From positions 57,779 to 121,778 of the forward strand of contig JBAZYF010000005.1 of assembly GCA_041659505.1 (NCBI GenBank): a stretch of DNA of 64,000 bases. Reading direction: 5' to 3'. Positions within the stretch are counted from its first letter, which is position 1. Each line of letters begins with the position of its first letter. Under the pieces are notes generated by a model, which was not told the origin of the DNA, did no database searches, and worked only from the letters and a program-made list of their open reading frames with translations. This DNA is from Parcubacteria group bacterium (GTDB lineage: Bacteria > Patescibacteriota > Minisyncoccia > Moranbacterales > UBA2206). Made by a program: the position numbers and the translations under genes. This document shows, in pieces, positions 5,777 to 40,618 of the stretch.

Positions 5777-7369
5777 ATGAAAAAGATAACAAAATCGCTT
5801 TTGATGATCACCGCGGCTGCGGCAATCGTGATCGGCGGAACAAGCGCGTTTTTTTCCAGCCAAAAGGCTGCCGTAAACAACACGTTCAAAGCAGGAACGC
5901 TTAATTTGCAGTTGGCAAAAGATAATCATGGCGTTCCAACTGGGGGATGGCAGGATGTGAGTATTGATGCTAATTGGAATTTTCCAGACATGGCTCCGGG
6001 AGAAACTCCTCAAGAGGCGACAATGTGGTTGAAAAACAATGGAAGTATTGACGCGAAAAAATTAGGATTCTCCATAACTAACGCTAATGATGATAATACT
6101 GGATTTGAAAGGCAAGTCCGTATCACTAAAATGACCTTTGACGGGCAAAATATGCTCCAAGGTGGTGCAGGTGCTGACCAATCAGTCTATGTGAAACCGA
6201 CTCACTGCGATATCAATGTTAATCCTGGCGCATATTCTACTATCAATGCTGCTCTAGAATCTTTAGGATCAGCAACTGGTAAAGTAATTTGCGTTGGCCC
6301 GGGTAATTATACGACTAGCTATGAAACCAATGCAATCATAATTAATCAAGGTGTTACATTAGTATCCACCGATGGGCCTGGAGCAACAACCATTAGTGCA
6401 TCAAGTACTACTGCAGGCGTTACCATCAATGCTGTCAATGTTACAATAAAGGGATTTACTATTGCTCCTGATAAAACTTTTGTCGGATATGGTGCAGCAA
6501 TTGCAGTTAATTATGGCGGAGCTAAAATTCAGGATAATGTGATAACTGACGTAAAAGGAGATGGTCAGGGGACAATAAAAGGTATCCACGCCTTTACTGG
6601 ATCTGCTTATAGTAATTTAGAAATTACGAACAATGTTATAAAAAATATTGCTAATACAGGCAAGGGAGCGGATGGGATTATGATTCAAGGTAAGATTAGC
6701 ACAATAAATATTACTCACAACACAATCACTGATATTAGTTCAAATAATACTAATAATACATGGGATTATGCAGCGGGTATTGAGGATACGCCAACTAGCA
6801 ATCTGGCCGATTCTTCGCCTCTAGGTTTGACGATTACTTATAATCACATTGAGAATGTAACTAGCGTAACTGAATTAGGCAGAGGATTCACAGTTGACAT
6901 TGTGAATTGCAATGATTCGGTAAAGGGCACGAATAATTATGCCTACGCTGACCAGGTTACTTTTAAGAAGAATGATATAATTGGTATAGCAAATCCAATT
7001 ACCAACAAGGATCAACGCACGACTTCTAATGGAACATTGAATGCAGAAGATAATTGGTTTGGTGATTTTACTCCTGTGGCTAATCTAGGTGGAGTGGCAA
7101 AGTGTGAGACTGGCGTTGTGAACACAACAAATTTTGCCGGTGGACCATTTGCTGGTTTTGTTGGCGGTACAGACCAAAATAGTAATGGTTTTGCCGATAT
7201 GCAAGACTTGCGGTTGACTCCGATTGCTGGAATGCCAGTGGCCTTCGCTCATTCAGCGGAAAAACGTTTTGTGATGGGCGTGCAAGTTGACGGACCAACA
7301 ACACTTGATAATTTTCAAGGCGCGAGTCTACACAATGTGGATTTGACTGTAACTATGTTGCAACAATAA
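5777..7369 (+). CDS. TasA/camelysin-like secreted protein with SipW-cognate-class signal peptide and parallel beta-helix (PbH1) repeats
   Basis: The N-terminus AAAIVIGGTSAFFSSQKAAVNNTFKAGTLNLQL matches the TasA/camelysin N-terminal signature (GGT.A.F.D...N.F..GTL.L). The middle region has repeated VTINAVNVTIKGFTI / IQDNVITDV / ITNNVIKNI / ITHNTITDI strands typical of a right-handed beta-helix. Confidence 0.7.
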   Translation: MKKITKSLLMITAAAAIVIGGTSAFFSSQKAAVNNTFKAGTLNLQLAKDNHGVPTGGWQDVSIDANWNFPDMAPGETPQEATMWLKNNGSIDAKKLGFSITNANDDNTGFERQVRITKMTFDGQNMLQGGAGADQSVYVKPTHCDINVNPGAYSTINAALESLGSATGKVICVGPGNYTTSYETNAIIINQGVTLVSTDGPGATTISASSTTAGVTINAVNVTIKGFTIAPDKTFVGYGAAIAVNYGGAKIQDNVITDVKGDGQGTIKGIHAFTGSAYSNLEITNNVIKNIANTGKGADGIMIQGKISTINITHNTITDISSNNTNNTWDYAAGIEDTPTSNLADSSPLGLTITYNHIENVTSVTELGRGFTVDIVNCNDSVKGTNNYAYADQVTFKKNDIIGIANPITNKDQRTTSNGTLNAEDNWFGDFTPVANLGGVAKCETGVVNTTNFAGGPFAGFVGGTDQNSNGFADMQDLRLTPIAGMPVAFAHSAEKRFVMGVQVDGPTTLDNFQGASLHNVDLTVTMLQQ

Positions 7370-7473: not shown

Positions 7474-8118
7474 ATGATTGATATTGCAATGCTTGGAAAG
7501 ATATTCAAATTCAGTATGAATACGATTTTGTTCGGGCTTGTCGTTTTAGGCGCTCTGGTCGTTTTTTCGTCCGTGCCTTTCGCGGGAAACTATAAGGCGT
7601 TTATCGTGATGTCCGGTTCAATGGAACCGACCATCCACACGGGCAGTATCGTTTTTGTCCGTCCGGAAAAAGCCTATGCCGTCGGAGATATCGTGACGCG
7701 AAGATTCGCCGATTCCGATCTAACGGTAACGCATCGTATTTTTTCCCAAAAAGAAGTTGATGGACAGGTAATTTTTGACACGAAAGGGGATGCAAATGAT
7801 GGCGAAGACAATGCAACAGTCACGTCGGCGGATATTATCGGCAAAGAAATCACTGCCGTGCCCTATGTCGGTTATGCAGTGGCTTATGCCAAGACGGAAA
7901 TGGGACTGTTGCTCATTATTGTCATCCCGGCGGTGATTGTTATTTATGACGAGTTGAATAAAATCAGAACGGAAGTCGCTTTGATGCGAAAAAAGAAAAA
8001 AGAAGAAAAGGAGGCAAAAACACGAGTGGCGGAAGAAACGAAAATAACATTTCCGGAAAGGCAGTATGTGCGGGGGATTGTTAATGCGCCGGTTGAGAAG
8101 AGGAGAAAAATTGTCTAA
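7474..8118 (+). CDS. sipW: Signal peptidase I, SipW/archaeal-ER type (S26B)
   Basis: N-terminal TM segment, then VMSGSMEPTIHTGSIVFV carrying the catalytic Ser motif, then ...THRIF...GDANDGEDN. C-terminal TM segment and a K/E-rich tail. Confidence 0.8.
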   Translation: MIDIAMLGKIFKFSMNTILFGLVVLGALVVFSSVPFAGNYKAFIVMSGSMEPTIHTGSIVFVRPEKAYAVGDIVTRRFADSDLTVTHRIFSQKEVDGQVIFDTKGDANDGEDNATVTSADIIGKEITAVPYVGYAVAYAKTEMGLLLIIVIPAVIVIYDELNKIRTEVALMRKKKKEEKEAKTRVAEETKITFPERQYVRGIVNAPVEKRRKIV

Positions 8119-11276: not shown

Positions 11277-11397
11277 ATTAGGGTTCAGGATGACAGAGAA
11301 AATGCGGGAATGACAAGGAGAGTGGCGGGGTATCTTTCTAAGGTTTCTCGTCAAGATAGGAATAATAATGCGAGGTTTTTTGTTAAGGGTGAGGAAT

Positions 11398-14184
11398 ATG
11401 CAAAAAATATCGGATAAAATTTTGAATAATGCGCTGGTGCTTCTGGTAATTTTGAACTTGGCCAGCTATCAGGTTGTTTTGCCGATTGCTATTTCGCGCG
11501 CGGATGATACAGACAGCGGGACAACGACAGAGGTGAAGGCGGAGGAAAGTTCTTCTGACTCGGACTCTGGGGCGGATAAAGAGGATGAAAAAATAGAGGA
11601 AGAAAAAAAGGCTGAAGTAGATGAGAAAGAAGACGCGACCACAGAGGAGAAAAAGAGCGATCTGAAAGTTGCTGAGCCTGAAGTCAAGCCAGTGCCGGAA
11701 GTTGATTTGGTGACAACTGGTGCGGGTTCGGCGGATGCCGATGAACCTTTGGTGGTTTCCGATGATGCAGTTTCGGCGGTTATCCAAAGCGACACGGCCG
11801 CAGAAGTTGAGGCCGAAAATACTTGCGCGTGCCAAAAAGATCCGGAGGAGAATAATGATGAAGAAAAAACTTGCTCGAGCGATTGTGCTTGTGGCCAGCC
11901 GGCAGATTGCCAATCAGCTGTGGTGCAGACGAATGTGGCACAGGAAGTGATCAACACAACGGAAGCTGTCGCGGTTACGGGCGAAAATACGATTGCGGGG
12001 GTAGTCGCGGGAATGAATTCAACAGAAGTTGTAGAACAAAACAGCGATCAGGTACAGGATGCTGATACTGATAATAATGCTGATAGAAATACTAATAAGG
12101 ATAATTCCGAGCCGGAAGCTAGCGAGGAAAAGCAAGCTCAGATCATCACGGGCGACGCCACTGCCGGAGCAGTGGCGGTCAATGAGATCAATACCAATAT
12201 CTACACGGACAACGGTGTGCAATATCAGCAAAATATCACAGGCGATTTTACCGGCGACATCAATCTGATCGAAACTTTCGACAGTGTTTTGGATAGCGCG
12301 CAAAAATTGAACGAAGAAAATCAAAAAGCGTTGGAAAAGGTGACGGTGACAAATGTGAACGTAGCGGAAAAAGTGGAAAATACGGTTCTGGCGAACGCGA
12401 ACAGCGGGGATAATTTGGTTGAGGCGCTAGACTCCGCGGCGGAAATCGTGACCGGTAGTGCCCAGGCGCTGGCGGGCGCGGTTAACTATATCAATACGAA
12501 CATCGTTGGAAATAATTGGCTTTTTGCGCAGATTAATATTTTGGGCAATTGGACGGGGGATTTAATCGTGCCGGGAGAAGGGCTGTTCGAACTGCCTTCG
12601 GCGGGAATGGTTTTTGAAAACATCACCAATATTAATCTGGCCAAAAGTATTACTAACTTTCTTTCTTCTGATGCGAACTCGGGGGATAATTCAGTGACTT
12701 CCGCAACGGGTGATGTGATGGTGGCAACGGGAGACGCGACCGCGACGAGTAATGGAACGACGCTGGTCAATACGAACATCGCTAATAATAATTGGTTCTA
12801 TCTTTTGATCAATAATGCCGGCAATTGGACCGGGCAAGTCTTTAATTGGAACAATGGCAACGCCAGTTTGGCGTATGAATATAATTTTGGCAGTCAAATG
12901 GGAGCTGACGCGCCAGTGACAAAAAGTGTCAGCGTGAATAATTATAATAGCGCGGAAGAGGTTAGCAACACGGTTGTGGCTCGGGCGAATACCGGTGAGA
13001 ATTCTATCTCCGAGGTAGTAGGCGATGCGACAATCGCGACGGGGGACGCGGTGGCGCGTGCCAGTGCGTTTAATTTTATCAATACGAACATCGTCGGCAA
13101 TAATTGGTTTATGGCGGTGGTGAATAATGCCGGCACGTGGAACGGGGATTTGGTTTTTGGTTATCCGGATCTGGCGGTGGATCTGTCAGCGGATAAAAAT
13201 ACGCTTGAGCCGGGGCAGAGTTTGACTTATGCCGTGAAGTATAAAAATAGCGGCCAGGCAAAATGTGGGAATGTTGAGCTGATGCTGTCACTGCCGGATA
13301 ATTTTTTCTACCAATCAGATAGTCTAGGTGCAGCGCGCAAAAACGGTAATGACTATTTTTGGTCCGCACCGGGCCTCAAGGCGGGAGAAGAAAAAACTTT
13401 TAGCGTGACGGTATTGCTCGATCCAAACACCGGAGCAAACGTGGCGTCTTTGGAAAGTGTGGCGGGAGTAAAAACGGACACGCAAGAAGTGGCGCTGGCG
13501 AATAACTATGCCAGTGAAAAAACCGATCTTATCTTTCTGGCTGATTCAAGTGTGATGATCCAAAACGGATTGCCGGAAAAAAATGGCAAGCTTTCTGTCA
13601 CACGACAAGAGGAGGCAACCGTTGCCGTCGGATCGATTTCCGGTCATAGTATTTTTGTCAAAAATTCCGGCAAGGACACACTCTATAATCTGGAAGTCAA
13701 AGAGGCAATCAAAAATCCGTCCGGAGAAACGATGGTGGAATATGTCTGGCCGATCGAGAAATTGAAAAAGGGCCAGACGGCGACGATCCAATATCAGATC
13801 TTTGTCGATCCAGCGATGGCATTAGGCGACTATAAATATGTTGCTTCTGCTGTGGCAATTGATTATTATGGCCGCCAAGTAGAAAGTAAAAAAGCTTCCA
13901 AGACCGTAGCGTTTATTGGAGGTGCTCCAGGTCAAACAAACGCATACGCTAGTGATGAGAATGGTTTGATTTCTCCCGAAGCTGTTTTAGCGCCAGAAGA
14001 AGTGAATACTATTCCGGAAGTTTTGGGGACAGCCACAGAGGCGAATAAAATTGCTTGGCAATGGTTTCTAGTACTCATGCTTGTCCCACTGGCTTTTTAT
14101 GCCCAACGAAAAGAGATTTATCGTTGGGAAACTATCCAGAAATTTTCCAGACAGATGGGCAGTTTTTTGAGTTCGTTTTTGTAA
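11398..14184 (+). CDS. Large surface protein: signal peptide, acidic region, three ~90-aa 'NSGDN...TGDA...NTNI.NNW...GNWTGD' repeats, DUF11/CARDB-like domains, C-terminal TM anchor
   Basis: RBS ggtgaggaatATG at 11398. Repeats begin at NSGDNLVEALDSAAEIVTGSAQALAGAVNYINTNIVGNNW, NSGDNSVTSATGDVMVATGDATATSNG...NTNIANNNW and NTGENSISEVVGDATIATGDAVARASAFNFINTNIVGNNW. DUF11-like stretch LTYAVKYKNSGQAKCGNVELMLSLP. C-terminal WQWFLVLMLVPLAFYAQRKE. Confidence 0.7.
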   Translation: MQKISDKILNNALVLLVILNLASYQVVLPIAISRADDTDSGTTTEVKAEESSSDSDSGADKEDEKIEEEKKAEVDEKEDATTEEKKSDLKVAEPEVKPVPEVDLVTTGAGSADADEPLVVSDDAVSAVIQSDTAAEVEAENTCACQKDPEENNDEEKTCSSDCACGQPADCQSAVVQTNVAQEVINTTEAVAVTGENTIAGVVAGMNSTEVVEQNSDQVQDADTDNNADRNTNKDNSEPEASEEKQAQIITGDATAGAVAVNEINTNIYTDNGVQYQQNITGDFTGDINLIETFDSVLDSAQKLNEENQKALEKVTVTNVNVAEKVENTVLANANSGDNLVEALDSAAEIVTGSAQALAGAVNYINTNIVGNNWLFAQINILGNWTGDLIVPGEGLFELPSAGMVFENITNINLAKSITNFLSSDANSGDNSVTSATGDVMVATGDATATSNGTTLVNTNIANNNWFYLLINNAGNWTGQVFNWNNGNASLAYEYNFGSQMGADAPVTKSVSVNNYNSAEEVSNTVVARANTGENSISEVVGDATIATGDAVARASAFNFINTNIVGNNWFMAVVNNAGTWNGDLVFGYPDLAVDLSADKNTLEPGQSLTYAVKYKNSGQAKCGNVELMLSLPDNFFYQSDSLGAARKNGNDYFWSAPGLKAGEEKTFSVTVLLDPNTGANVASLESVAGVKTDTQEVALANNYASEKTDLIFLADSSVMIQNGLPEKNGKLSVTRQEEATVAVGSISGHSIFVKNSGKDTLYNLEVKEAIKNPSGETMVEYVWPIEKLKKGQTATIQYQIFVDPAMALGDYKYVASAVAIDYYGRQVESKKASKTVAFIGGAPGQTNAYASDENGLISPEAVLAPEEVNTIPEVLGTATEANKIAWQWFLVLMLVPLAFYAQRKEIYRWETIQKFSRQMGSFLSSFL

Positions 14185-14215: not shown

Positions 14216-17200
14216 ATGAAAAGGGTGAGAAAAAATGGACGCCGCTGGGCGTCGAAGATTTTTAGTATCTGGGTGATTCTTCTCCTGTTATTTCAGCCGA
14301 TCGGCACACCAGGAATGTTGGCGATCGCCGAAGAGTTGTCGCCTGCGCCGACGGTTGAAAAAGAAGCTTCTAAAGAAGCTTCTAAAGAAGATCCTAAATC
14401 AGAGGAGAAAGTTGAGGTTGAAAAAGAGGCGCCGAAAGCGGAAGTCGTTGCTCCGGTAGAAAAAACTGATCCGGTGCCAGCACCAAAAGAAGAGCCGAAG
14501 GGCGATCCAGTCGTTCCCGTTGAAAAACCGGCCGAAAAAACTGAACCTGCTGCCGCTGGCTCCATAAGCGATCCGATTGTCGAGGCAGAACCAGCAGGAG
14601 AAATTACCCCCGAAGCGGCTTCCACGGAAAAAGTTGATGGTGCAAGCATAACAGCTTCGGAAATGCCGAAAGTGGAAACGCCCGTCGAAGATGCTCCAGA
14701 TTTGACACAAGAAGTAAAAAAAGAAACTTGGTCGGTGGATGGCAAAAAAGCTACAACTAATGAACCGGTCGAACTGGAGAAGGAATATAAATTTCCGGGC
14801 GATGAGGATGTGAGCGTAAGATTTACGAAACTGCCGGAAAAGCCCGGCACGCTTTCGATCGAAGAGATTGGATTGAGTGATAAACAAGTGGAAGAGCTGG
14901 GCGCGCTTTCTAAGATTGCCTATGACATTACTTCGACGATGGAGGACGGCAGTTTTGAGTATGACTTGAGTTTGCCAAAATCAAAAGATGATAAGAATGT
15001 CCAAGTAAAATTTGCCGAAAAAATTTCCGAGCTGGATGATGCGAGAATTATTTCCGCTGATGATGTGACGGAAAAAAATGATTCGGTGAATGTGGAAAAG
15101 TTGGATCATTTTACGGTGTTTGTGGTAGTGGAGTGGAATTTTCCCAATAACCCAGACAATTCTATTGCCGATGATGGAATCGCTTCTAACCTGGCTAGAA
15201 ATATGACAGTAGTAGGGGCGACAAACTTGTTATTTAGTTCCTCTGGCGCAACAAGCAATTCAGCTTCTGCTGATCATTGGAATGGTGGTTCCGGAATAAA
15301 GTATTGGCAAGTCGAATTTGATTCCTCGGGCTATAATTCCATAAGATTATATTCCAAGCAAAGAAGTTCCAATACCGGTCCTCGAGATTTTAAAATTCAA
15401 TATTCTACTGACTCTGGGTCTGATTGGGCGGATATTTCAGGCGGTAATATAGTTGTTGCAAATAATTATACGGCAGGAGTTATCGCCGAACTTCATTTAC
15501 CTACTCAATGCAATAATCGCGCATCTGTCTATTTGCGTTGGATTATGACATCGGATACTTCAGTCAGTGGCGGAGCTGTTGGAAATACTGGCGTGAGTAA
15601 TATTGATGATATCATAGTTAAGGGTGAAGAAATAGAAATCGTACCAGATGCAGACGGAGATGATGTTCCAGATTCACAAGACAATTGTATCAATACTCCA
15701 AATGGCCCAAAGCAAATAAACGACAATCAGCTGGATGATGACGGTGACGGACTTGGCAATGCTTGTGATATATTGAATTGTATAGCCACAGGCGAAGAAA
15801 GCTGTAACGATTTGGTGGATAATGATTGCGATGGAGAAATCAATGAAGATTGTGTGATTTCTTTTTGCGGAAATGGAACAGTCGATTTCGGTGAGGACTG
15901 TGATATCAACTCACAAAAGCAAGCTTGCCTTACTGACGGCGGATATCCCGGAGAGATAACTTGTGGCGAAAGCTGTTCGTGGAATAATTATTGCTATCCC
16001 ATAGCGGGATGCGGAGACGGAATTATGAATGGACCAGAACAGTGTGATGACGGAAATGAGATTTCTGGCGATGGATGCGAAAACGATTGTACAGTCACTC
16101 CACAAGCTGAATTTTGCGGAGACGGGATTGTGAACGGTGATGAAAAATGTGATGATGGGAATGTCGTGTCGGGTGACGGTTGCAGTGCGAGTTGTGAAGT
16201 TGAAAAGACTGGTTCGATTTCCGGCAAAAAATTTGAAGATTGTAGTGCGAACGGAATATTTGATCGTTGTGAACAAGGGATGCGTGGTTGGGCAATTTTT
16301 ATTGACAAAAACAATGATGGAATTTTGGACCCGGAAGAAAATGTCGCATTGACCGGCAAGGGGGGTTATTATATTTTTACCAATCTTTATCCGGGCACTT
16401 ATCGTATTTGCGAAGCGTCCAAAGCCGGTTGGATCCAGACAGCACCCGGCGAAGATGGATGTCACGAAGTGGTTTTGAACGGGGAAAGATTGACCGGATA
16501 TGATTTTGGAAATTTCAAATTGGGCACAGTGTCTGGCCGAAAATTCAACGATCTTAACGGCAACGGTTGGAAAAATTTCAATGAGCCCTATCTCAATGAT
16601 TGGACGATTAGACTGTATGATTCCACTTGGCAAAAAGTGGCGGAAACCGCAACGGCGGGAAGTGGTTGGGAAAAAGGTCAATATAGTTTTGATAGCCTTG
16701 AGCGCGGAACGAATTATATCTGCGAAGCGATGAGCGAAGGTTGGGAGCAGACTAGTCCGAAAAACGGCTGGAGCGTGGTAAACAATCTTTCGGGGATGGA
16801 GGATGAGGGCGCGAAATGTTGGAAGGTAGAGGATACTTGTTCAGGGAACGTATTTGCCGGAAAAAGTTTTGGCAATCATTTCACACCGCCTGCGCCGACG
16901 GGAAAAATTTCTGGCGTTAAATTTGAGGATACCAATGGTAACCAGCTGAAAGAGGAGAGCGAAGCAAAGCTTTCCGGCTGGACTATCTATCTGGATGCAA
17001 ATAATAATTCGCAAAAAGATCCGGGCGAGCTAAACACGATCACAGATGCTAATGGCTACTATGAATTTGTTGGACTGACGCTGAGGAATTATTATGTGCG
17101 CGAAGAGAATCAGGCTGGTTGGATACAAACTACGCCCTATCACAACAATGGCGCCTATTATGTCTCGCTCAACAAATGTCACCTGGAGGCGGGCGGAATG

Positions 17201-19339
17201 GATTTTGGTAATCGCAGGCAACCATTGGTCTATTGCGGTGATGGAATAGTGGAGCCGTATCTGGAGCAATGTGATGATGGCAACGCAATTTCCGGTGATG
17301 GATGCAGCGCTGATTGTATGCTAGAAACCGGATCGATCCATGGGTATAAATGGAATGATCTCGATGGAAATGGGACAAAGAATGGGGAGGAAGGGAATCT
17401 CTCCGGCTGGATGATCAATCTTTATCGATCAAATGGTGATGGATATGATAGCGAACCGATAGAGACAATGATGACGGATAGTAGTGAGCAGCATTTCGGT
17501 TGGTATTGGTTTCAAAATCTTCTGCCAGGGAAATATAAAGTCTGTGAAGTTTTGCAATCCGGTTGGGCGCCGATCTATCCTACTACCGACAAAGATGATA
17601 ATTGCCATCTAGTGACTTTGCCGGACGATAATTCTTTCAATTTTCGGGAATCAGAAAATGCCGTGACCGGACCTGAATATAATTTTGGCAATCAGCCAAC
17701 TTCTGATAAGCCGACGCTCAGGATTGAAAAATCAAATGATGCGTCAGCTCCGCAAGCGCCGGGCAGTGATGTGACCTATACGATCAAGGTAACAGCGCTA
17801 GCTAATCCAGTTTTGAAAGTGCAGGTGACTGATCTTCCACCGGCCGGTTTTATTTATCGCGCGGGCAGTGCGACTGGCGCGCCGTTTATCCATGAATATG
17901 CTTCGCCGGGTGTTTGGGATTTGGGTGATATGGCCGCCGGAGAAACTAAGACGCTTACCTATGTTGCTGATATTGATAATGATCAAGACTCGGGAACATA
18001 TAAGGATATTGCTTGGGCGAAAGGGACGGCTTCTTCTGGCGCGACAGTGTTTGCGCTTGGCAATCAAGAAGCGTCACCATTTTTCGTGGGAACAGATGTT
18101 GAGGTCATCGATCCAGTTACGGCTGATGTGGCACTTGCGGAAAGGACAGAAACAAAAACTAAACATAAAACAGAAACGAAACATCGAACTGTGATCGGGG
18201 AAGTTTTGGGCGCTTCGACAATGTTGCCGGAGACGGGGGCGGATACGACTTGGGTGGTTGTGGCTCTTCTCGCTTTGCTTTCCGGTTTGGGACTGATAGT
18301 TCTGGGGCGGAGAAAAAATAATTTAGTTAAGGTTGTTGAAAAAACAATGAAAATATTTATCCTGGTGTTTGTTTTTGGATCGCTCGCTATTTCTGGCGGA
18401 AACGCATTGGCAGACTCTGGCAATATTTCTGTCCAGATTGAACAGCCAAAATCTCCAAGCACGAATAATTTCCTTTTGGGATTTGTGGCGCTGGACATTG
18501 AGGGGCGTGCGATGACAGTGGAATGCTATAAAAATTCTGATACTGCGCCTTTTCAGACGATCAATTTTAGCAATGCGGGAGGAAATTCCGGCAATTGCAT
18601 TATCGACGAAAATATTGCTTCGACAGATGGGAACTATAGTTTTCATGTGAAGGCGAGCGCCGGTAGTGATACTGTTTCTAGTTCTGAGGTAGTAGTGGAA
18701 ATTGCGACTGATGCGCCGGGAACGCCGACAAATTTTAGCCATACAAAAAGTGGTTGCGCGCATAATATCAGCCTTATGACAGCCGATGATAGTGGAAAAA
18801 CCGTGCGGGTGGAAATTTATCGTTCGACCGAACCGGAATTTGTTGCGGACGAAACAACGCGAATATTTGGTGTGGATGCGAGTTCTAATCAAGCAGTAAG
18901 TTTCTCTGATAACGCGCCTGATTGCAATGAAACATATTATTATGTCGCGCGCGCTTTCAATCTGGCAGATGAAGGCTCGGGATTTGTGGGGGATGAAAAT
19001 GTAATTGTAAAAAAGAAAACAGACACTAATCACAAAACTAAAACGAAAACAATTCATCCTACGTCATTAAATGTGACGACGACTGGTGTGGGGCAGAGCG
19101 CAGGTGCTGGAGCGAACAGTGGAGCAGTAGCGGGCAATGAAGTGACGGGCGGGGAGCAACAGGGACAAGTTTCTGGCACAGAAAATAATCAGGAGATTGC
19201 CGGTGCGCAGACGGAAAATGCGGGAGACACTGGTTCTTTAGCTAAGAATGGAAATTTTTGGCTACTCTTAGCAGTCGCAGCAGGAGCTGGCTTATGGTAT
19301 TACAAAAAAAAGAAACAACCGGTGGCGGAGATTAAATAA
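14216..19339 (+). CDS. Giant (1707-codon) cell-surface protein ORF with an internal LPETG sorting signal followed in-frame by a second signal-peptide-bearing module. Domains: Myxococcus-type Cys-rich repeats, TSP type-3-like Asp-rich repeats, SdrD-B/Cna-B-like repeats, and DUF11.
   Basis: Signal peptide WVILLLLFQPIGTPGMLAIA, then a P/E/K-rich linker. At least five CGDGxxxxxExCDDGNxxSGDGCSxxC repeats. DADGDDVPDSQDNC...DDDGDGLGNACD. Repeated units GSISGKKFEDCSANG...GGYYIFTNLYPGTYRICE. LPETG at 18224-18238, then a hydrophobic segment and GRRKNN. A new MKIFILVFVFGSLAISGGNALA begins at 18347 in the same frame. The C-terminus is hydrophobic followed by KKKK. Confidence 0.7.
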   Translation: MKRVRKNGRRWASKIFSIWVILLLLFQPIGTPGMLAIAEELSPAPTVEKEASKEASKEDPKSEEKVEVEKEAPKAEVVAPVEKTDPVPAPKEEPKGDPVVPVEKPAEKTEPAAAGSISDPIVEAEPAGEITPEAASTEKVDGASITASEMPKVETPVEDAPDLTQEVKKETWSVDGKKATTNEPVELEKEYKFPGDEDVSVRFTKLPEKPGTLSIEEIGLSDKQVEELGALSKIAYDITSTMEDGSFEYDLSLPKSKDDKNVQVKFAEKISELDDARIISADDVTEKNDSVNVEKLDHFTVFVVVEWNFPNNPDNSIADDGIASNLARNMTVVGATNLLFSSSGATSNSASADHWNGGSGIKYWQVEFDSSGYNSIRLYSKQRSSNTGPRDFKIQYSTDSGSDWADISGGNIVVANNYTAGVIAELHLPTQCNNRASVYLRWIMTSDTSVSGGAVGNTGVSNIDDIIVKGEEIEIVPDADGDDVPDSQDNCINTPNGPKQINDNQLDDDGDGLGNACDILNCIATGEESCNDLVDNDCDGEINEDCVISFCGNGTVDFGEDCDINSQKQACLTDGGYPGEITCGESCSWNNYCYPIAGCGDGIMNGPEQCDDGNEISGDGCENDCTVTPQAEFCGDGIVNGDEKCDDGNVVSGDGCSASCEVEKTGSISGKKFEDCSANGIFDRCEQGMRGWAIFIDKNNDGILDPEENVALTGKGGYYIFTNLYPGTYRICEASKAGWIQTAPGEDGCHEVVLNGERLTGYDFGNFKLGTVSGRKFNDLNGNGWKNFNEPYLNDWTIRLYDSTWQKVAETATAGSGWEKGQYSFDSLERGTNYICEAMSEGWEQTSPKNGWSVVNNLSGMEDEGAKCWKVEDTCSGNVFAGKSFGNHFTPPAPTGKISGVKFEDTNGNQLKEESEAKLSGWTIYLDANNNSQKDPGELNTITDANGYYEFVGLTLRNYYVREENQAGWIQTTPYHNNGAYYVSLNKCHLEAGGMDFGNRRQPLVYCGDGIVEPYLEQCDDGNAISGDGCSADCMLETGSIHGYKWNDLDGNGTKNGEEGNLSGWMINLYRSNGDGYDSEPIETMMTDSSEQHFGWYWFQNLLPGKYKVCEVLQSGWAPIYPTTDKDDNCHLVTLPDDNSFNFRESENAVTGPEYNFGNQPTSDKPTLRIEKSNDASAPQAPGSDVTYTIKVTALANPVLKVQVTDLPPAGFIYRAGSATGAPFIHEYASPGVWDLGDMAAGETKTLTYVADIDNDQDSGTYKDIAWAKGTASSGATVFALGNQEASPFFVGTDVEVIDPVTADVALAERTETKTKHKTETKHRTVIGEVLGASTMLPETGADTTWVVVALLALLSGLGLIVLGRRKNNLVKVVEKTMKIFILVFVFGSLAISGGNALADSGNISVQIEQPKSPSTNNFLLGFVALDIEGRAMTVECYKNSDTAPFQTINFSNAGGNSGNCIIDENIASTDGNYSFHVKASAGSDTVSSSEVVVEIATDAPGTPTNFSHTKSGCAHNISLMTADDSGKTVRVEIYRSTEPEFVADETTRIFGVDASSNQAVSFSDNAPDCNETYYYVARAFNLADEGSGFVGDENVIVKKKTDTNHKTKTKTIHPTSLNVTTTGVGQSAGAGANSGAVAGNEVTGGEQQGQVSGTENNQEIAGAQTENAGDTGSLAKNGNFWLLLAVAAGAGLWYYKKKKQPVAEIK

Positions 19340-19515
19340 CAGATATCCCCTTCGCCCTTAGGGAGAAGGTGGCCGAAGGCCGGATGAGGGAAAGGGCGTT
19401 ACATTGAGATAAAACTAAATTAGCTTAGATCATTCCTAGTGCATAGCCCTTGCCCTCACCTGTCACGTGCTCGTGACATCCTCTCCCGAAGGGCGAGGAG
19501 GAAATAGTATTCCAT

Positions 19516-20151
19516 ATGCTAGTTAGCGGAGAAAAAAAGCAGAGAGTTATTTTTAGGGCAGGAATATTTCTGGTTGCCTTTTCTCTGCTTTTATTTTTTT
19601 TAATCTTTTATCCGGTTATCAAAACGGAAATCGGTTTTCTTTTTTCCGCTAAAAAACCAGACGTGAAGATCGGGTTGGTTGGAGCAGGCAATGAAGTTTC
19701 TGGTGACGTGATTATTCCGGCGAGTTCGGACTTCAGCTTGATCATTCCGAAGCTTGAAATCAATTCAAAAGTGGTTGCCAATGTTGATCCGTTTTCTGCC
19801 AAAGATTATCGTGAAGCGTTGAAAGAGGGTATTGCCCATGCCAAGGGGACGAGATTGCCTGGCGAGGATGGAAATATTTTTATGTTCGCGCATTCCTCGG
19901 GAAATTTCTATGATACGAACCGGACGAATACGCTTTTTTTTCTACTGAATAAATTGGAAAAAGACGACAAACTTTCAGTGGTGTATAAAAATAAAATCTT
20001 TCGCTATCAAGTGGCAGAAAAAAAGATCGTGGCTGGAGATGCGGTAGAATATCTCAAGGATGAGAGGGATGAAGAAAGTTTGACGCTGATGACTTGCTGG
20101 CCGCCGGGGACGGATTATGAGCGACTGATCGTTGTGGCGGAAAAAGTCTAA
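19516..20151 (+). CDS. Sortase-family transpeptidase
   Basis: N-terminal TM segment. Conserved His in IFMFAHSSGNF, catalytic Cys in LTLMTCWPPG (TLxTC motif), and Arg in RLIVVAEKV. Directly downstream of the LPETG protein. Confidence 0.75.
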   Translation: MLVSGEKKQRVIFRAGIFLVAFSLLLFFLIFYPVIKTEIGFLFSAKKPDVKIGLVGAGNEVSGDVIIPASSDFSLIIPKLEINSKVVANVDPFSAKDYREALKEGIAHAKGTRLPGEDGNIFMFAHSSGNFYDTNRTNTLFFLLNKLEKDDKLSVVYKNKIFRYQVAEKKIVAGDAVEYLKDERDEESLTLMTCWPPGTDYERLIVVAEKV

Positions 20152-20729
20152 AGATTTTTTTTGCCAAAAAGAACAGTGACGTAGAAATATTCTTTTTCCT
20201 CCTTGCTGATTTTTTCTGTCCCGATACCGATATCAAAAAAATTCTCTCCTAGGATATTTTCACGATGCGTCACGGATCCCATCCACGCAGACACGGTCTG
20301 GTCGGGGGAAGAGAAGTTGCGCGCCAGATTTTCTCCAGCGTACTTATAATCATAGCCGTTTTTCTCAATTGATCCCCAGACGAAATTTCCCTCGGGAGTC
20401 TGGTGGGAAAAATAATTCCGGCGGAGCATATCCTCCGTTTTTTGATTGGCTGCCATATTTAATTGGGCATTGATCGTCAGTGGAGGCAATTTTTTGGTAG
20501 ATCTCTCCTCATTAATACGTCGCACAATTTGCGCTTCAAAAGAGCTGAGCTGAGGTGCACTGGCACTGCTTGCGTTGGCTATTTTATTTTCTTCTCCGAG
20601 AATATGTACTGAGAGGATCTGCCACAACAAAAAAGCGCAGATTCCCAACAGGAGATATCGCGGAACGCTTTTTTTCAACATAAAAAGGCTCCGTGAAATC
20701 CGTTGAGCCCTATCTACAAAAAGGCGCAC
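20148..20729 (-). CDS. Secreted CAP/SCP/PR-1 superfamily protein (paralog of 64..957)
   Basis: Has NYFSHQTPEGNFVWGSIEKNGYDYKYAGENLARNF...WMGSVTHRENIL. N-terminal TM/signal YLLLGICAFLLWQILSVHILG. This is the only minus-strand gene in the window. Confidence 0.7.
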   Translation of the reverse strand: MRLFVDRAQRISRSLFMLKKSVPRYLLLGICAFLLWQILSVHILGEENKIANASSASAPQLSSFEAQIVRRINEERSTKKLPPLTINAQLNMAANQKTEDMLRRNYFSHQTPEGNFVWGSIEKNGYDYKYAGENLARNFSSPDQTVSAWMGSVTHRENILGENFFDIGIGTEKISKEEKEYFYVTVLFGKKNL

Positions 20730-23591: not shown

Positions 23592-23707
23592 CTTAAGGGA
23601 AGGTACTTGCAGTTTAGTGGTGGTAGCTTTCCGCTGTTGCTAACTTTTTATTTCGTGGTATAATAAATTGGACGGTTAGATAAGAAACAAAAAACTATCA
23701 ATAATAG

Positions 23708-24853
23708 ATGTTTGATTTTAATTTCAAAAAAAACGTATTCCTCGGAATTGATATCGGTACGGCTTCCGTGAAGATTGTTGAGCTTAAGATAGTAGATGGA
23801 AAGACAATCTTATCTAACTATGCCTGGATGCCACTTGGCGGAGATATTTTGGGAAAAAATAAGGCGGATGCGGATTATCTGCAGACTGTCCTGCCTCAGT
23901 GTATCAAGAAAATCATCAAAAAGGCGAAGATTTCTGGAAGAAATGCCTATGTGTCTTTGCCGGCTTTCGGTGGACTCATTGCGCTTATTGATTTTCCTGA
24001 GATGGCTGATGGCGATATGGAGCAAGCAATAAAGTTCGAAGCGCATAAATATGTGCCAACATCGCTTGATGAGGTTGTGATCAGTTGGGAAATCGTGGAA
24101 AGGGGAACTGGTGCGGTCACTGAGATGCCTCAAGAGAAGGACTTTTTAGGGGCTCCGTCCGGCAAGAATGTTGATTCGGGAGAAAAGATCAAGGTGTTGC
24201 TTGTGGCTGCTTCACGGAAGAAAGTTTTGTGTTATGAAAATTTGATCAAGGCGTCTGGATTGAGTTTGCGTTCGATCGACATCGAGACTTTTTCCATCGT
24301 TCGTTCGCTCGTCGGCAATGATTTGGGTAATTTCATCATCGTAGATATCGGGGCACGGGTTTGTAATATTATTTTAGTTGAGAAGGGCATAATCAGGATC
24401 AATCGCAATATTGATGCAGGGGGGATAGAAATGACTAAGACGATTGCCAAGGCAATGGGGATTGATTTTGAGAGAGCAGAGGCACTGAAAGTTTCTGGTA
24501 GGGATTTTTTTGCTGCCGATTCGGCTATCAGTTTTTTTACATTGGAACTTATCACGGGCGAGGTAGAACGGATAATCCGTACCTGTCATAAAGATGGAGA
24601 GCAGAATACCCCAGACAGGCTGATCCTATCTGGCGGGACGTCAAAGTTGGTCGGTATGGGGAAATATTTTTCTGATAAATTGCAGATAGAGGTGGTTATT
24701 GGCAATCCTTTTGCGCGGATTAGTTATGACAGCAGATTGGAGCCTTCTATCTCTAATATTCAAAATAATTTTGCGGTAGCTGTCGGATTGGCGTTGAAAG
24801 GAGTGGAGGAGTATCACAAAAAGGAACTAGTTAAGAAAGTAATTTTAAAATAA
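23708..24853 (+). CDS. pilM: Type IV pilus assembly protein PilM (actin-like ATPase)
   Basis: FLGIDIGTASVKIVELK...IVDIGARVCNIILV...ILSGGTSKLVG. An extended -10 gTGgTATAAT lies at 23656-23664. Confidence 0.8.
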   Translation: MFDFNFKKNVFLGIDIGTASVKIVELKIVDGKTILSNYAWMPLGGDILGKNKADADYLQTVLPQCIKKIIKKAKISGRNAYVSLPAFGGLIALIDFPEMADGDMEQAIKFEAHKYVPTSLDEVVISWEIVERGTGAVTEMPQEKDFLGAPSGKNVDSGEKIKVLLVAASRKKVLCYENLIKASGLSLRSIDIETFSIVRSLVGNDLGNFIIVDIGARVCNIILVEKGIIRINRNIDAGGIEMTKTIAKAMGIDFERAEALKVSGRDFFAADSAISFFTLELITGEVERIIRTCHKDGEQNTPDRLILSGGTSKLVGMGKYFSDKLQIEVVIGNPFARISYDSRLEPSISNIQNNFAVAVGLALKGVEEYHKKELVKKVILK

Positions 24854-24928
24854 ATTTAAACATCCTGCTGAGTCCCGCTGGCCGGGAATCGTCCTTGTGG
24901 GGACGAATCTGACAGGATAAAAATAAAA

Positions 24929-25441
24929 ATGGCAAATATAAATTTGGTCACCGACAAGGAAGAAACCAAAATGATGGGAATGGGCACTAGCGTTCTTCTC
25001 GCTGTGTTCTTTCTGGTCATTTTAATTTATTGCGGCTTATTTTTCTATGGGAAAAAGCTGAGCAAGGATACTGATGCTCTGACTGCCGCATACAGCGCTA
25101 AGCGTAGCAGTTTTATTGTTGGCGATTCAAAGAGGGTGTTAGATTTTCAAAATAGACTATCGATTTCGAATGATCTTTTAGCTCAAGAGCGCAATGCCAA
25201 TCAAAACGTGGTAAAAGTGGAAGAATCGATGATTGCCGGCGTCTATTTGAGCGCCTACGAATATGATGACGACACAAAAGCAATCACGCTTGATTGCTAT
25301 GCGGATAATTATGAGATGGTCGCTAAACAGATCTTAAGTTTTAAGAGCTCTGATTATTTTACATCTGTTCTTGCGGGAGAGAGTGAATTTGACACGAGGC
25401 TTAATAAGATTAGTTTTACGGTTGTTTTAAAAATTAAATAA
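24929..25441 (+). CDS. pilN: PilN-like bitopic pilus assembly protein
   Basis: Single N-terminal TM segment, then a periplasmic domain. Placed between pilM and pilO. Confidence 0.55.
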   Translation: MANINLVTDKEETKMMGMGTSVLLAVFFLVILIYCGLFFYGKKLSKDTDALTAAYSAKRSSFIVGDSKRVLDFQNRLSISNDLLAQERNANQNVVKVEESMIAGVYLSAYEYDDDTKAITLDCYADNYEMVAKQILSFKSSDYFTSVLAGESEFDTRLNKISFTVVLKIK

Positions 25442-25447
25442 AAAAAT

Positions 25448-26242
25448 ATGAAAATAAAAATATTACTCGCCCCGTCGCTGATCGTTTTAATAATAGTAAC
25501 AATTATTTGGTACGCCTATCCGGCTTATACTAACGGAGTCGATGGCGTCAAGGAGAGAAGCGAAAAATTGGTCCAGCAAGAAAGTCTGATGTCGGGTCTG
25601 GATGGTCGCATCAGCAATGCCAATAAATTAGTGGCAGATCTGGATTCTAATTCCTTCGAAAACTCAGTTGTTTTTAATTATGTTCCAGTGAATACGGAGG
25701 AAGAGAAGATTATTGATAACCTGAATTCTTTAGCAAAGAACAATGCCTTGTCCGTGCTTAATATTTCAGTTTTTCCGGAAAAAGAAACTGCCGTAGTGGT
25801 GCCGACTATCGATGCTAGTGCTACTAGCTATCTCCCTGTCTCTGGCAATGCGGGGGCTCCTGCTCCTGTGACGCCGAAGGCGGTGCCAAAAAATTTGGAA
25901 GTGAATTTTTCTGTACTGGGGGAATACGAAAATATAAAAAGTTTGCTCGGAAAAATTCAGAAGCTGAAAAGATTTGACAAAGTTTCTGCACTGACAATAA
26001 AGACACTGATCAATAGCGATCAGGTCGTGAGCGCTTCACTGCAAGCAGATATTACTTTGGAATTTAATTATCTCGATGAGCTGAAGAGGTTGGCGGATGG
26101 GGATATTGATAATGACATCTTCGTCAGGGGAGCTTTTGATAAGCAGGTGATAGGAAAAATTAAAGATAGTCGCAACATCGATGTTAACAATGTTCTTCCT
26201 GGCGAAAGAGGTGGGAACAATCCTTTTAATGTCGCAAAATAA
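25448..26242 (+). CDS. pilO: PilO-like bitopic pilus assembly protein
   Basis: N-terminal TM segment, coiled-coil region. Position within the operon. Confidence 0.5.
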   Translation: MKIKILLAPSLIVLIIVTIIWYAYPAYTNGVDGVKERSEKLVQQESLMSGLDGRISNANKLVADLDSNSFENSVVFNYVPVNTEEEKIIDNLNSLAKNNALSVLNISVFPEKETAVVVPTIDASATSYLPVSGNAGAPAPVTPKAVPKNLEVNFSVLGEYENIKSLLGKIQKLKRFDKVSALTIKTLINSDQVVSASLQADITLEFNYLDELKRLADGDIDNDIFVRGAFDKQVIGKIKDSRNIDVNNVLPGERGGNNPFNVAK

Positions 26243-27912
26243 TGACCAAAAAAGTGGCGGAGAAAAACGATGGAGATCTGAGTGGCGATGTTCCTGCCGG
26301 ACAGGGAATCAGTCAGAATCTTTTGCGTGAGGTGCCGAAGAATATTCCGGGCAATGTTGTCAACATAATTCCCAAAGAAGTAGCTGAGAAATATGGCATG
26401 ATGGCTTTTGAAAAATCAGAAGGCATCTTGAAAATTGCCATGCTTTATCCGGAAAATGTTGAAGCGCTCAATGCTTTGAATTTTGTGGCAGAAAAAGAAA
26501 AGGCAAGAATTGAAACATACGCTGTTTCTCCTGATATTTTCTCTGGCCTGTTTGTTTTATACAATGAAACTAATGAAGCATTGAAGGAAGCGGTGGATTC
26601 TTTTGAGGACGAAAAATATCGGATGGATGTTGATGACAGCGGAAAGAGTGATAAAAAAAAAGAAAAGGAGATTCTGAAAGATGCTCCTGTGACCAAATTG
26701 GTAGAGGTGGTTATCAGTCATGCCGTGGAAGGAAAGGCAAGCGATATCCATATTGAGCCAATGGACAAAGACTATCGAGTGCGTTTCAGAGTGGATGGAG
26801 TGCTTCATGTCAGCTTGATTTTTCCACTTGAGATTGGGCCAGTGGTGATTTCTCGGATAAAGATTTTGGCAAATCTAAAAATTGATGAAAAGAGAAAGCC
26901 CCAGGATGGAAGGTTCCGGCTAAACTTCAATAAGAAGGACATTGATTTTCGCGTATCCTCATTGCCTGTGGTCGGTGGAGAAAAAATTGTGATGCGGATT
27001 TTGGACAAAGATGGCGGCACGGGCAGTATTGATGCTTTAGGGCTGGTAGGAAGAGCGAGGACCGATATTGAAAAAGCCATCCAGGAAACCTATGGAATGA
27101 TTCTGATGACTGGTCCGACAGGCAGTGGAAAATCAACCACCCTTTATACGCTGTTGAAAATTCTAAACAATGAAGAGCGAAATATTATCACGCTGGAAGA
27201 TCCAGTCGAGTACTTTATCGAAGGGATGAATCAAAGCCAGGTCAAGCCGGAAATCGGCTATACTTTTGCTTCAGGGCTCCGTACAGTTTTGCGTCAAGAT
27301 CCAAATGTGATTATGGTGGGCGAAATCCGTGACGGCGAAACTGCTGAACTTGCTGTGCATGCGGCGCTCACAGGGCATCTGATGTTTTCCACCTTACACA
27401 CAAACACGGCAATTGGCGCTATTCCACGTCTGATCGATATGGGCATCGAGCCCTTTCTTCTCTCTTCATCGTTACGGATGGTAATTGCACAAAGATTGGT
27501 GCGTCGGATCTGTGAAAAGTGCAAAAAGGAAAAAGAAATTTCTGCTGTTGTTGGGTCCAGGATAATAGATAAAATTAAAAATATTTCCGCTAAACAAGTA
27601 GAAGATTATGGAATTAACCTAACTGATGGGGTCAAGTTTTATCATGGCGAGGGATGTGATGCATGCAACGGGACAGGACTGAAGGGCCGGGTGGCTATTT
27701 ATGAAGCAGTGCCAGTGACGGAAGCGATAAAAAATATCATTATTGAAAAAAGAGGAAGTGAGGAGCTGATAAAAAAAGAACGTGATCGGATGGGAGTTCT
27801 TACGATCGAGCAGGACGGAGTCTTGAAGATTCTAAAAGGCCTCACGACGATCGAAGAAGTGGAGCGGGTTACTGAATGTAATTTTACCACGCTAGAGGAA
27901 GCTAATGATTGA
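26242..27912 (+). CDS. pilB: Type IV pilus assembly ATPase PilB (GspE family)
   Basis: N-terminal GspII_E_N-like domain, Walker A LMTGPTGSGKSTTLY, Asp/His boxes, and a tetracysteine CEKC...CDAC. Confidence 0.85.
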   Translation: MTKKVAEKNDGDLSGDVPAGQGISQNLLREVPKNIPGNVVNIIPKEVAEKYGMMAFEKSEGILKIAMLYPENVEALNALNFVAEKEKARIETYAVSPDIFSGLFVLYNETNEALKEAVDSFEDEKYRMDVDDSGKSDKKKEKEILKDAPVTKLVEVVISHAVEGKASDIHIEPMDKDYRVRFRVDGVLHVSLIFPLEIGPVVISRIKILANLKIDEKRKPQDGRFRLNFNKKDIDFRVSSLPVVGGEKIVMRILDKDGGTGSIDALGLVGRARTDIEKAIQETYGMILMTGPTGSGKSTTLYTLLKILNNEERNIITLEDPVEYFIEGMNQSQVKPEIGYTFASGLRTVLRQDPNVIMVGEIRDGETAELAVHAALTGHLMFSTLHTNTAIGAIPRLIDMGIEPFLLSSSLRMVIAQRLVRRICEKCKKEKEISAVVGSRIIDKIKNISAKQVEDYGINLTDGVKFYHGEGCDACNGTGLKGRVAIYEAVPVTEAIKNIIIEKRGSEELIKKERDRMGVLTIEQDGVLKILKGLTTIEEVERVTECNFTTLEEAND

Positions 27913-27953
27913 TTTTTAATTTAATTTTTCTAAGTTGATTTGTTTACAGCTAT

Positions 27954-28343
27954 ATGGAAGAAAGCAGGAAAAAAATAATGATTATCGAGGATGATTATTT
28001 TGTGCTCGATATCTATCACACAAAGCTGACCCAAGAAGGCTTTGAAGTGCTTGATGCGAAGGATGGCGGAGAAGGATTGGAGAAATTGCGGACACAAGAA
28101 AAACTTCCCGATCTGATCCTTTTGGATATCATCATGCCAAATCTGGGAGGATTGGACGTCCTAGGCGCAATCAAGCAGGATGAGCGTTTAAGGAATATTC
28201 CCATAATCCTTCTGACCAATTTGAGCCAGAAGGATGAAATAGATAAGGGATTGGAGTTGGGAGCGACTGATTACCTGATCAAATCGCATTTTACTCCATC
28301 GGAAGTCCTGGAAAAAATTAATAGTGTGCTTAGTAAAGCTTAA
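27954..28343 (+). CDS. Single-domain response regulator embedded between pilB and pilT
   Basis: KIMIIEDDYFVLDIY...LILLDIIMPNLGGLDVL...ILLTNLSQK...GATDYLIK. Confidence 0.8.
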   Translation: MEESRKKIMIIEDDYFVLDIYHTKLTQEGFEVLDAKDGGEGLEKLRTQEKLPDLILLDIIMPNLGGLDVLGAIKQDERLRNIPIILLTNLSQKDEIDKGLELGATDYLIKSHFTPSEVLEKINSVLSKA

Positions 28344-28347
28344 AAAT

Positions 28348-40030: not shown

Positions 40031-40102
40031 AGCGGGATGGAGCAATGGCAGCTCGTCTGGCTCATAACCAGAAGGTTGTAGGTTCGAATCCTACTCCCGC
40101 AA
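40031..40102 (+). tRNA. tRNA with CAU anticodon (Met or Ile2-lysidine); position 1:72 appears unpaired
   Basis: Cloverleaf: anticodon loop CTCATAA, T-arm GTAGG-TTCGAAT-CCTAC, acceptor 3' strand TCCCGCA. Boundaries are +/-2 nt. Confidence 0.6.
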
Positions 40103-40185
40103 CATAGTAGTATTTGGTATCCTGACGTATCTGGCATTGTTTTTTTACTGCTAAATACAAATTACAAAATACCGGACACTGATGA

Positions 40186-40259
40186 GGCAGGGTAGCTCAG
40201 CCGGTTAGAGCGCAGCACTCATAACGCTGAGGTCGTGAGTTCGAGTCTCACCCCTGCTA
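40186..40259 (+). tRNA. tRNA with CAU anticodon (second copy; Met/fMet/Ile2 undetermined)
   Basis: GGCAGGGTAGCTCAGCCGGTTAGAGC D-arm, anticodon loop CTCATAA, T-arm GTGAG-TTCGAGT-CTCAC, acceptor CCCTGCT. Confidence 0.65.
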
Positions 40260-40363
40260 CAAAAAAAATTAAAATTAAAAAATCAAAGTGAAAAATTTAG
40301 GAAAATTGTCGCGAAGCGACTCCTTATTTTTTCATTTTGAGATTTGCATTTTACATTTGCAAC

Positions 40364-40437
40364 GGGGGCGTAGCTCAGTTGGTTAGAGCGACTGCCTGTC
40401 ACGCAGTAGGTCACCGGTTCGAGTCCGGCCGTCCCCG
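40364..40437 (+). tRNA. tRNA-Asp (GUC)
   Basis: GGGGGCGTAGCTCAGTTGGTTAGAGC, anticodon stem ACTGC/GCAGT with loop CTGTCAC, discriminator G73. Confidence 0.7.
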
Positions 40438-40618
40438 CAGTTGATTTAGTGGCTTAATTCAGGCCTCTTTTTCGATGGGGAAAACGGTGCCTCGAACATT
40501 ATTCCGATCTAGTTGACAAAATCGACTTTTCGCGGTAGAGTGTTAAATCAGAATATGACGGCACATTAACAACATTCAGCGCATATTTGCGCTTTTAGCT
40601 TATCTAGGGAGGGAGAAT

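Follow-up and report, generated by a model that had tools for sequence, protein, structure and literature searches.

Sortase sorting signals are defined as C-terminal, and the locus described here has one in the middle of a protein. The window, a stretch of 64,000 nucleotides (nt) from a Parcubacteria group bacterium (GenBank assembly GCA_041659505.1, contig JBAZYF010000005.1), contains on its + strand a single open reading frame (ORF) at 14216..19339, which encodes 1707 amino acids (aa) with no internal stop codon and whose product is named by NCBI as MFA5962290.1, 'SdrD B-like domain-containing protein [Parcubacteria group bacterium]'. An earlier note, made from the sequence alone, had correctly observed that this ORF runs through an LPETG motif into a second hydrophobic segment, and had offered three explanations, namely two sortase substrates fused by a lost or miscalled stop codon, a genuine polyprotein whose N-terminal part is clipped by sortase while the rest is separately anchored, or programmed read-through. 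The comparative evidence favours the second of these, and we consider it probable that the ORF encodes a genuine two-product surface-protein precursor, in which a giant LPxTG adhesin is followed by a small C-terminal module and then, in the next gene, by a sortase, and which would be processed along the pathway proposed below.

The frame across the junction reads ...IGEVLGASTM-LPETG-ADTTWVVVALLALLSGLGLIVLG-RRKNN-LVKVVEKT-MKIFILVFVFGSLAISGGNALA-DSGNISVQIEQPKSP.... The LPETG sortase motif (18224..18238, + strand, aa 1337-1341; sortase-site peptide VLGASTMLPETGAD) is preceded by a conserved EVLGAST and followed by the hydrophobic segment of the sorting signal, ADTTWVVVALLALLSGLGLIVLG (18239..18307, + strand, aa 1342-1364), which is predicted to be a first transmembrane segment (TM1) running out-to-in, and by GRRKNN (18305-18322), and this region matches the TIGR01167 LPXTG_anchor model over aa 1337-1369 with 24.7 bits against a cut-off of 15.9. 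The sorting signal recognised in the earlier note is thus upheld by the model, with its end moved from 18316 to 18322. It does not lie at the C-terminus of the precursor, since 338 residues follow GRRKNN in the same frame (366 aa beyond LPETG). The linker LVKVVEKT, which has eight codons and not the 11 counted earlier, leads to an in-frame ATG at nt 18347 (M1378) that starts MKIFILVFVFGSLAISGGNALA|DSG, and the second signal peptide proposed at this position does show the n-, h- and c-region features expected of one. The intervening basic loop, RRKNNLVKVVEKTMK (18308..18352, + strand, aa 1365-1379, net charge +5), is predicted to be cytoplasmic and contains both this ATG and a run of six A residues (A6, 18313-18318). 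The core of the internal signal peptide, IFILVFVFGSLAISGGNALA (18353..18412, + strand, aa 1380-1399), forms a second predicted transmembrane segment (TM2), running in-to-out, and a predicted signal peptidase I site, ALA|D, falls between nt 18412 and 18413, which would give the mature module the N-terminus DSGNISVQIEQPK.

When one genome per GTDB species was scanned, 125 loci related to the module were obtained, of which 80 were kept, spanning the Moran-, Davies-, Gottesman-, Shapiro-, Levy-, Woese-, Roizman-, Collier-, Chisholm- and Pacebacteria and the Saccharimonadales; module homologues were found in Patescibacteria only, and several of those in the first module alignment were already fused to an upstream DUF11...VLGAS..LPATG, a TM segment and RKR. 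In 47 of the 80 loci, the frame of the module stays open upstream through VLGAS(T)-LPxTG, a TM segment and K/R residues, often for more than 1000 aa, and the complete polyproteins are 631 to 3154 aa long. The earlier note had proposed that related genomes be searched for two separate genes at this position, and these occur alongside the fused form: in 30 of the 33 non-fused loci, the module has its own start and is directly preceded by the end of an LPxTG gene in a different frame. The stop codon of this LPxTG gene falls at -2 to +82 nt relative to where the module match starts, so that the genes overlap or abut. Two of the other three non-fused loci are cut by contig ends, and the third (L061) has, about 400 nt upstream of the module, a truncated remnant of a sorting signal (...ADEAWLAFAVLLFITGIGLLTAGKYTRRLHV and a stop) that is itself preceded by a stop; in this locus, the adhesin gene appears to have been disrupted or replaced while the module and the sortase were kept. 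Similarly, the non-duplicate loci of a metagenome collection comprised 24 that were fused, 25 that were separate with LPxTG upstream, one that was separate without it and nine that were undetermined. In a library of 1.84 billion cluster representatives, the module family had 528 members at E<=1e-30, and in approximately 97 of the best 150 cluster representatives, the protein exceeds 400 aa and the module stands at its very C-terminal end. A neighbour-joining tree of the module requires at least eight switches between the fused and separate states, which are therefore interchangeable, and the Moranbacteria/Parcubacteria clade that includes the window is uniformly fused on this tree. Because the two parts are separate genes in 30 of the 80 species, both fusion and fission must have occurred in evolution, and the alternation of the two states among species amounts to a natural experiment.

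The hairpin at the junction is conserved in form among the fused loci. Its geometry was measured in 47 fused loci, including that of the window itself and omitting L015, in which no site was found. TM1 has a median length of 22 aa (range 17-26), the loop a median of 7 aa (range 3-21) with a net charge of +2 to +7 in 47/47, and the uncharged run of TM2 a median of 20 aa (range 15-24); many of the loops consist of nothing but RRR, KKR or RKK, with no Met ahead of TM2. LPxTG or MPxTG is present in 47/47 fused orthologues. With the locus of the window counted once, an AxA-type site (ALA|D, VYA|A, ADA|A, VSA|A and others) stands at the end of TM2 in 47 of 48 fused loci, and the signal peptides of stand-alone modules end in the same kind of site; the residue at +1 is Ala in 39/78 loci.

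Downstream of the module, a sortase gene on the same strand follows within 0-200 nt in every locus for which downstream DNA is available. In the window, it lies at 19516..20151 (+ strand) and encodes 211 aa with an N-terminal TM segment and the catalytic residues H126 (in FAHSS), C194 (in LMTCW) and R203, as the earlier note had proposed; it matches PF04203 (3e-23, 82.3 bits against 26.6) and TIGR01076 (60.4 against 39.35 bits). None of the models for sortase classes A-F (NCBIfam NF0337xx) was reached, the best being class C (65.8 against 160 bits), with classes D, E and F far below their cut-offs, and the closest solved sortases are class C pilus sortases, which are weak matches. Sortases are common in the candidate phyla radiation (CPR) and near-ubiquitous in Microgenomates (PMC6744442). 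H126, C194 and R203 are 100% conserved in 73 cassette sortases, and the last 250 aa of the adhesin (CLIPPER domain, stalk and sorting signal) are homologous in 76 of the 80 loci, directly upstream of the module. With its homologous adhesin end, its fixed sortase neighbour and the invariant catalytic residues, the locus is a conserved, phylum-wide three-part cassette of Patescibacteria, in which an adhesin that varies except at its LPxTG end is followed by the module and then by the sortase, and the complete surface-anchoring module that the earlier note had seen in one genome generalises to this cassette.

The mature module (18413..19336, + strand, aa 1400-1707, 308 aa) belongs to an uncharacterised Patescibacteria family. 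An AlphaFold model of the 330-aa C-terminal part, made with the family alignment, has a signal-peptide helix, two beta-sandwich (FN3/Ig-like) domains (residues 27-222, 18425-19012, + strand; pLDDT mostly >90), a disordered Thr/Lys/Gly-rich stalk (residues 227-299, 19025-19243, + strand) and a TM helix (residues 304-322, 19256-19312, + strand) followed by KKKK, in agreement with the hydrophobic and basic ending described in the earlier note. Four Cys residues are invariant in the family (60, 84, 137 and 193) and no Lys that could serve as an acceptor is (the best-kept Lys reaches 83%); no Pfam or NCBIfam model matched the module, and the module profile had no significant match among PDB sequences. 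All 81 modules compared have a C-terminal TM segment, which is followed by a basic tail in 79 and preceded by VLGx in 72, and a canonical LPxTG beside this segment is essentially absent from them. The module thus lacks both an LPXTG of its own and an invariant acceptor Lys, the two marks of a sortase-dependent pilin. Its end in the window, EIAGAQTENAGDTG...TM...KKKK, aligns by eye with EVLGASTMLPETG...TM...RRK, which suggests that the C-terminus of the module is a degenerate sorting signal. The stand-alone module of L028 has LPQTG approximately eight residues before its C-terminal TM segment (LPQTGPFTRLFSLRNLIYAALAG...RR) and may have retained or regained a functional sorting signal.

For the fused precursor, the following pathway is proposed. 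The N-terminal signal peptide would take the adhesin of approximately 1300 aa through Sec, and TM1 of the LPETG signal would stop the transfer in the out-to-in direction. The short basic loop would stay in the cytoplasm, as the positive-inside rule predicts, and TM2 would act as an internal signal peptide that restarts translocation in the in-to-out direction. Signal peptidase I would then cut after ALA (aa 1399) and free the module as a type I membrane protein with two beta-sandwich domains, a disordered stalk and its own C-terminal TM segment and KKKK, which would be the same kind of protein as the product of the split gene. The adjacent sortase would cut LPET|G and transfer the adhesin to an acceptor, presumably a peptidoglycan precursor, and the hairpin of approximately 58 aa (G1341-A1399) would remain in the membrane and be discarded. 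Fusion would give obligatory 1:1 co-synthesis of adhesin and module and their co-localisation at one translocon, and species with split genes probably approach the same outcome through translational coupling of their overlapping genes.

Several points weigh against this pathway. Both cleavages are inferred from the sequence, as are the membrane topology, the acceptor and the function of the module; signal-peptidase sites were judged by the -3/-1 rule and TM segments by runs of uncharged residues. Some internal initiation in the window is possible, given that its second signal peptide starts with an in-frame ATG. In addition, the agreement of this DNA with two other assemblies (L001 and L002, see below) is independence at the level of the assembler, as the same reads may underlie all three.

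The start signals at the junction bear on the first rival explanation, in which initiation at ATG 18347 would be the main source of the module, so that the fusion would be real, the read-through product incidental and the downstream part of that product wasted or degraded. In the window, this ATG coincides with the first codon of a canonical n-h-c signal peptide, and some ATG is kept in the junction region of 42 of the 48 fused loci, but an ATG with a Shine-Dalgarno core of at least 4 nt precedes the module in 23 of 31 separate loci against 7 of 48 fused ones, and a core of 5 nt in 20 of 31 against 2 of 48. The window is among the fused loci without such a core at its ATG, and two others (L053 and L059) have no ATG, GTG or TTG anywhere in the junction; in the loci whose loop is a bare three residues (RRR, KKR), there is likewise no Met before TM2. 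Ribosomes that translate the long ORF would, moreover, produce the fused chain in any case. Because the Shine-Dalgarno sequence is mostly lost in fused loci and two of these have no start codon, internal initiation at the module is unlikely on this evidence; it could supply most of the module in the window, where the ATG is kept, and not in general, and the explanation built on it is given a low probability.

The second rival explanation accepts the sortase cut and dispenses with that of signal peptidase. In this case, TM2 would stay uncleaved, and what remains after the cut at LPET|G would be a protein with three TM segments that displays the module. The topology is equally consistent with this outcome, and internal signal peptides are not always cleaved. 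The small residues at -1 and -3 that stand right after TM2 in nearly all fused loci, matching those of the stand-alone signal peptides, argue against it, and since the stand-alone form would yield a mature protein with a single TM segment, the equivalence of the two forms also argues for cleavage. We regard retention of an uncleaved TM2 as improbable.

In the third, the module itself would be the sortase acceptor, as a basal subunit: after the signal-peptidase cut, LPET would be joined to the N-terminal amine or to a Lys of the module, and the hairpin would be excised. If this were true, the product would be a covalent heterodimer of adhesin and module, tethered to the membrane by the stalk and TM segment of the module, and it would mean that ultrasmall CPR bacteria use a sortase in a splicing-like manner that does not depend on peptidoglycan. 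The constant position of the module between substrate and sortase is in favour of it, as are the weak resemblance of the sortase to class C pilus enzymes, the likeness of the module to a small pilin with two Ig domains and a degenerate sorting signal (VLGx, TM segment and basic residues, with no LPXTG) and the frequency of Ala at the +1 position. The family has, however, no invariant Lys that could accept the adhesin, and the N-terminus of the mature module is variable, so that this use of the module is also doubtful, and transfer of the adhesin to a presumed peptidoglycan precursor is preferred in the proposed pathway.

A sequencing or assembly error was a serious possibility, because the A6 run lies in the junction and a single-base change in it gives an immediate stop; by our own reading of the sequence, one additional A would give GRRKK and a stop, and one A fewer would give GRRKII and a stop. 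The exact 1707-aa product is encoded both on an ENA MEGAHIT contig (L001) and on a Logan contig (L002), and the DNA of the window and of these two contigs is 100% identical over 10-14 kb; the decisive evidence against an artefact is the recurrence of the fusion in other species. That the window holds two ordinary adjacent genes whose stop was lost through a homopolymer or assembly error, the first explanation of the earlier note, is thus hardly credible, despite the fragility of the A6 run and the occurrence of the two parts as separate genes in different frames elsewhere, since the junction is the same in the MEGAHIT and Logan assemblies, the in-frame fusion recurs in 47 of 80 divergent species with unrelated junction sequences and in most of the top cluster representatives, and the junction in the window does not have the Shine-Dalgarno sequence typical of loci with separate genes. 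Programmed read-through, the third explanation, and programmed frameshifting were ruled out for the window, where there is no in-frame stop and hence no need of read-through. Phase variation at the A6 run was also set aside, as the run is short and there is no supporting evidence.

The nearest known counterpart of the precursor is found in the streptococcal Zmp proteases (IgA1 protease/ZmpA, ZmpB, ZmpC and ZmpD), in which an atypical N-terminal LPXTG is accompanied by two TM segments and another signal-peptidase site (PMC3518915, citing Bender & Weiser 2006). For both, the proposal is that a sortase anchors the N-terminal piece of one translation product and that the C-terminal piece is released separately, and the window protein likewise carries, as far as sequence features go, an LPXTG, a pair of hydrophobic segments and a further site of the signal-peptidase type on a single chain. 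The proportions are different: Zmp combines a short anchored piece with a large C-terminal M26 protease, whereas in the window protein it is a giant adhesin that is anchored, and the module that follows it is small, non-enzymatic and provided with a TM anchor of its own. An HMM (hidden Markov model) search of the window protein gave no Zmp or M26 match, and its LPETG is at aa 1337 of 1707 and not near the N-terminus. The cassette differs from the Zmp proteases also in that many species encode its two pieces separately and in that a dedicated sortase gene is always next to them. The Zmp device is the only precedent that was found for the LPXTG-hairpin arrangement, and the literature on CPR/Patescibacteria sortases, internal signal peptides and sorting-signal polyproteins yielded no description of the fused precursor, the module family or the cassette.

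Other surface systems share some of these features. With canonical Gram-positive LPXTG proteins of the SdrD/Cna type, the window protein has in common an N-terminal signal peptide, CnaB/SdrD_B and CLIPPER stalk domains, an LPxTG with TM segment and basic tail and, next to the gene, a sortase that has the H/C/R triad; it differs from them in that its sorting signal is internal with 366 aa more to follow, the organism belongs to the CPR/Patescibacteria and the sortase is unclassified. Sortase-assembled pilus islands show the same order of large adhesin, small two-Ig-domain protein and sortase, and the best, although weak, matches of the sortase are to class C. Against this, the module of the window has neither an LPXTG nor an invariant pilin-type Lys, the score of the sortase is far from that of a class C enzyme (65.8 against 160 bits), and there is no major pilin. 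Pam pili are a CPR-specific surface system in which PamC and PamD are two-beta-domain proteins with a C-terminal TM helix (bioRxiv 10.64898/2026.03.03.709456). Compared by description only, these two proteins are superficially like the module; Pam pili, however, use donor-strand exchange with no sortase or LPXTG and have an ATP synthase operon context.

In these fused forms, a canonical LPxTG signal is placed mid-precursor across a large bacterial radiation, which contradicts the textbook C-terminal placement, and a short hairpin with positive charge links this signal to a predicted internal signal peptide. If the proposed reading is right, the cassette would be a second, phylogenetically broad example of a device otherwise known from streptococcal Zmp proteases only, and a previously unmodelled protein family would be an obligatory partner of CPR sortases and giant adhesins, the latter being likely host-attachment proteins of CPR episymbionts. 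Annotation pipelines give these products a single name, 'SdrD B-like' or 'LPXTG' protein, so that the second product is overlooked. Testable predictions also follow from the cassette on how proteins are displayed at the surface of organisms with a poorly understood envelope.

The adhesin begins with a signal peptide, MKRVRKNGRRWASKIFSIWVILLLLFQPIGTPGMLAIA|EE (14216..14329, + strand), read from the translation by its basic n-region, hydrophobic core and AIA site, and the adhesin part itself (aa 39-1340, 14330..18235, + strand) was delimited by HMM matches and motif reading. Its N-terminal region is acidic and Pro-rich and is followed by a weak F5/8-type-C-like stretch at aa 354-446 that is below cut-off. 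The families for which the earlier note had proposed HMM searches (TIGR02232, SdrD_B, DUF11 and sortase) all matched above their curated cut-offs, and the domain content it described stands in outline, with lower counts. Cys-rich repeats are present in three stretches (TIGR02232, 112.7 bits; DUF4215, 65.2 bits), located at aa 599-660 and 1007-1034 with a partial one at 551, which makes three full repeats and one partial and not at least five; SdrD_B (PF17210; 5e-34, 117 bits) covers four stretches, where at least five had been counted; and DUF11/CLIPPER is confirmed (PF01345; aa 1168-1268, 17717..18019, + strand; 4e-11, 43.7 bits). The TSP3-like repeats were not borne out, with no TSP3 family reported at E<=0.01 in the HMM search of the polyprotein, and the description of the genome as AT-rich was corrected by a GC content of 41.5% in the window. 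The DUF11/CLIPPER domain is the conserved membrane-proximal portion of the adhesin, and in fibrillar adhesins CLIPPER is known as a domain with an isopeptide bond (PMC12617251). The adhesin part closes with a stalk rich in TKTK and with VLGAST.

Stalks of the same kind, with alternating Thr and Lys, are found in both parts of the precursor, TETKTKHKTETKH before VLGAS in the adhesin (18140-18200) and KKKTDTNHKTKTKT after the second domain in the module (19000-19060), and the stalks of adhesin and module are also alike within one genome in homologues, for example TRTRTR/KTKTKT in P0017. Immediately upstream of the polyprotein ORF, a gene at 11368-14184 (+ strand) encodes a secreted DUF11/CLIPPER protein of 938 aa with the C-terminus EVLGTATEANKIAWQWF...TM...QRKE, which is an adhesin-like VLGxxT with TM segment and basic tail and no LPXTG. 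There seems to be a 'VLG + TM' class of C-terminal anchor beside the LPxTG class, common to the module too (72/81 modules).

Further genes in the window include a TasA/camelysin-like protein at 5777-7369 (+ strand; N-terminal region of Peptidase_M73, 2.7e-06) and a SipW-type signal peptidase at 7474-8118 (+ strand; Peptidase_S24 9.7e-07, S26 weak, SGSMEP motif), a pair that resembles the Bacillus sipW-tasA pairing. This peptidase was ruled out as a dedicated processing enzyme of the cassette, as one of its kind is present within 10 kb in only 7 of the 80 loci. Two secreted proteins of the CAP/YkwD family are encoded at 64-957 (+ strand) and 20148-20729 (- strand), and CAP homologues were found in 14 of the 80 related loci; the first has LPSAG and a hydrophobic segment and might be a second, atypical sortase substrate, and the gene for the second runs convergently to the sortase gene, the last 4 nt of which it overlaps. 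Downstream of RecO, at approximately 23700-29400 (19493-25124 on L001), lies a type IV pilus set with a PilM-like protein, two T2SSE/PilB-PilT ATPases and a response regulator, and such a gene set is typical of CPR genomes. A cluster of tRNA genes at 40031-40438 (+ strand) comprises tRNA-Met, tRNA-Met and tRNA-Asp.

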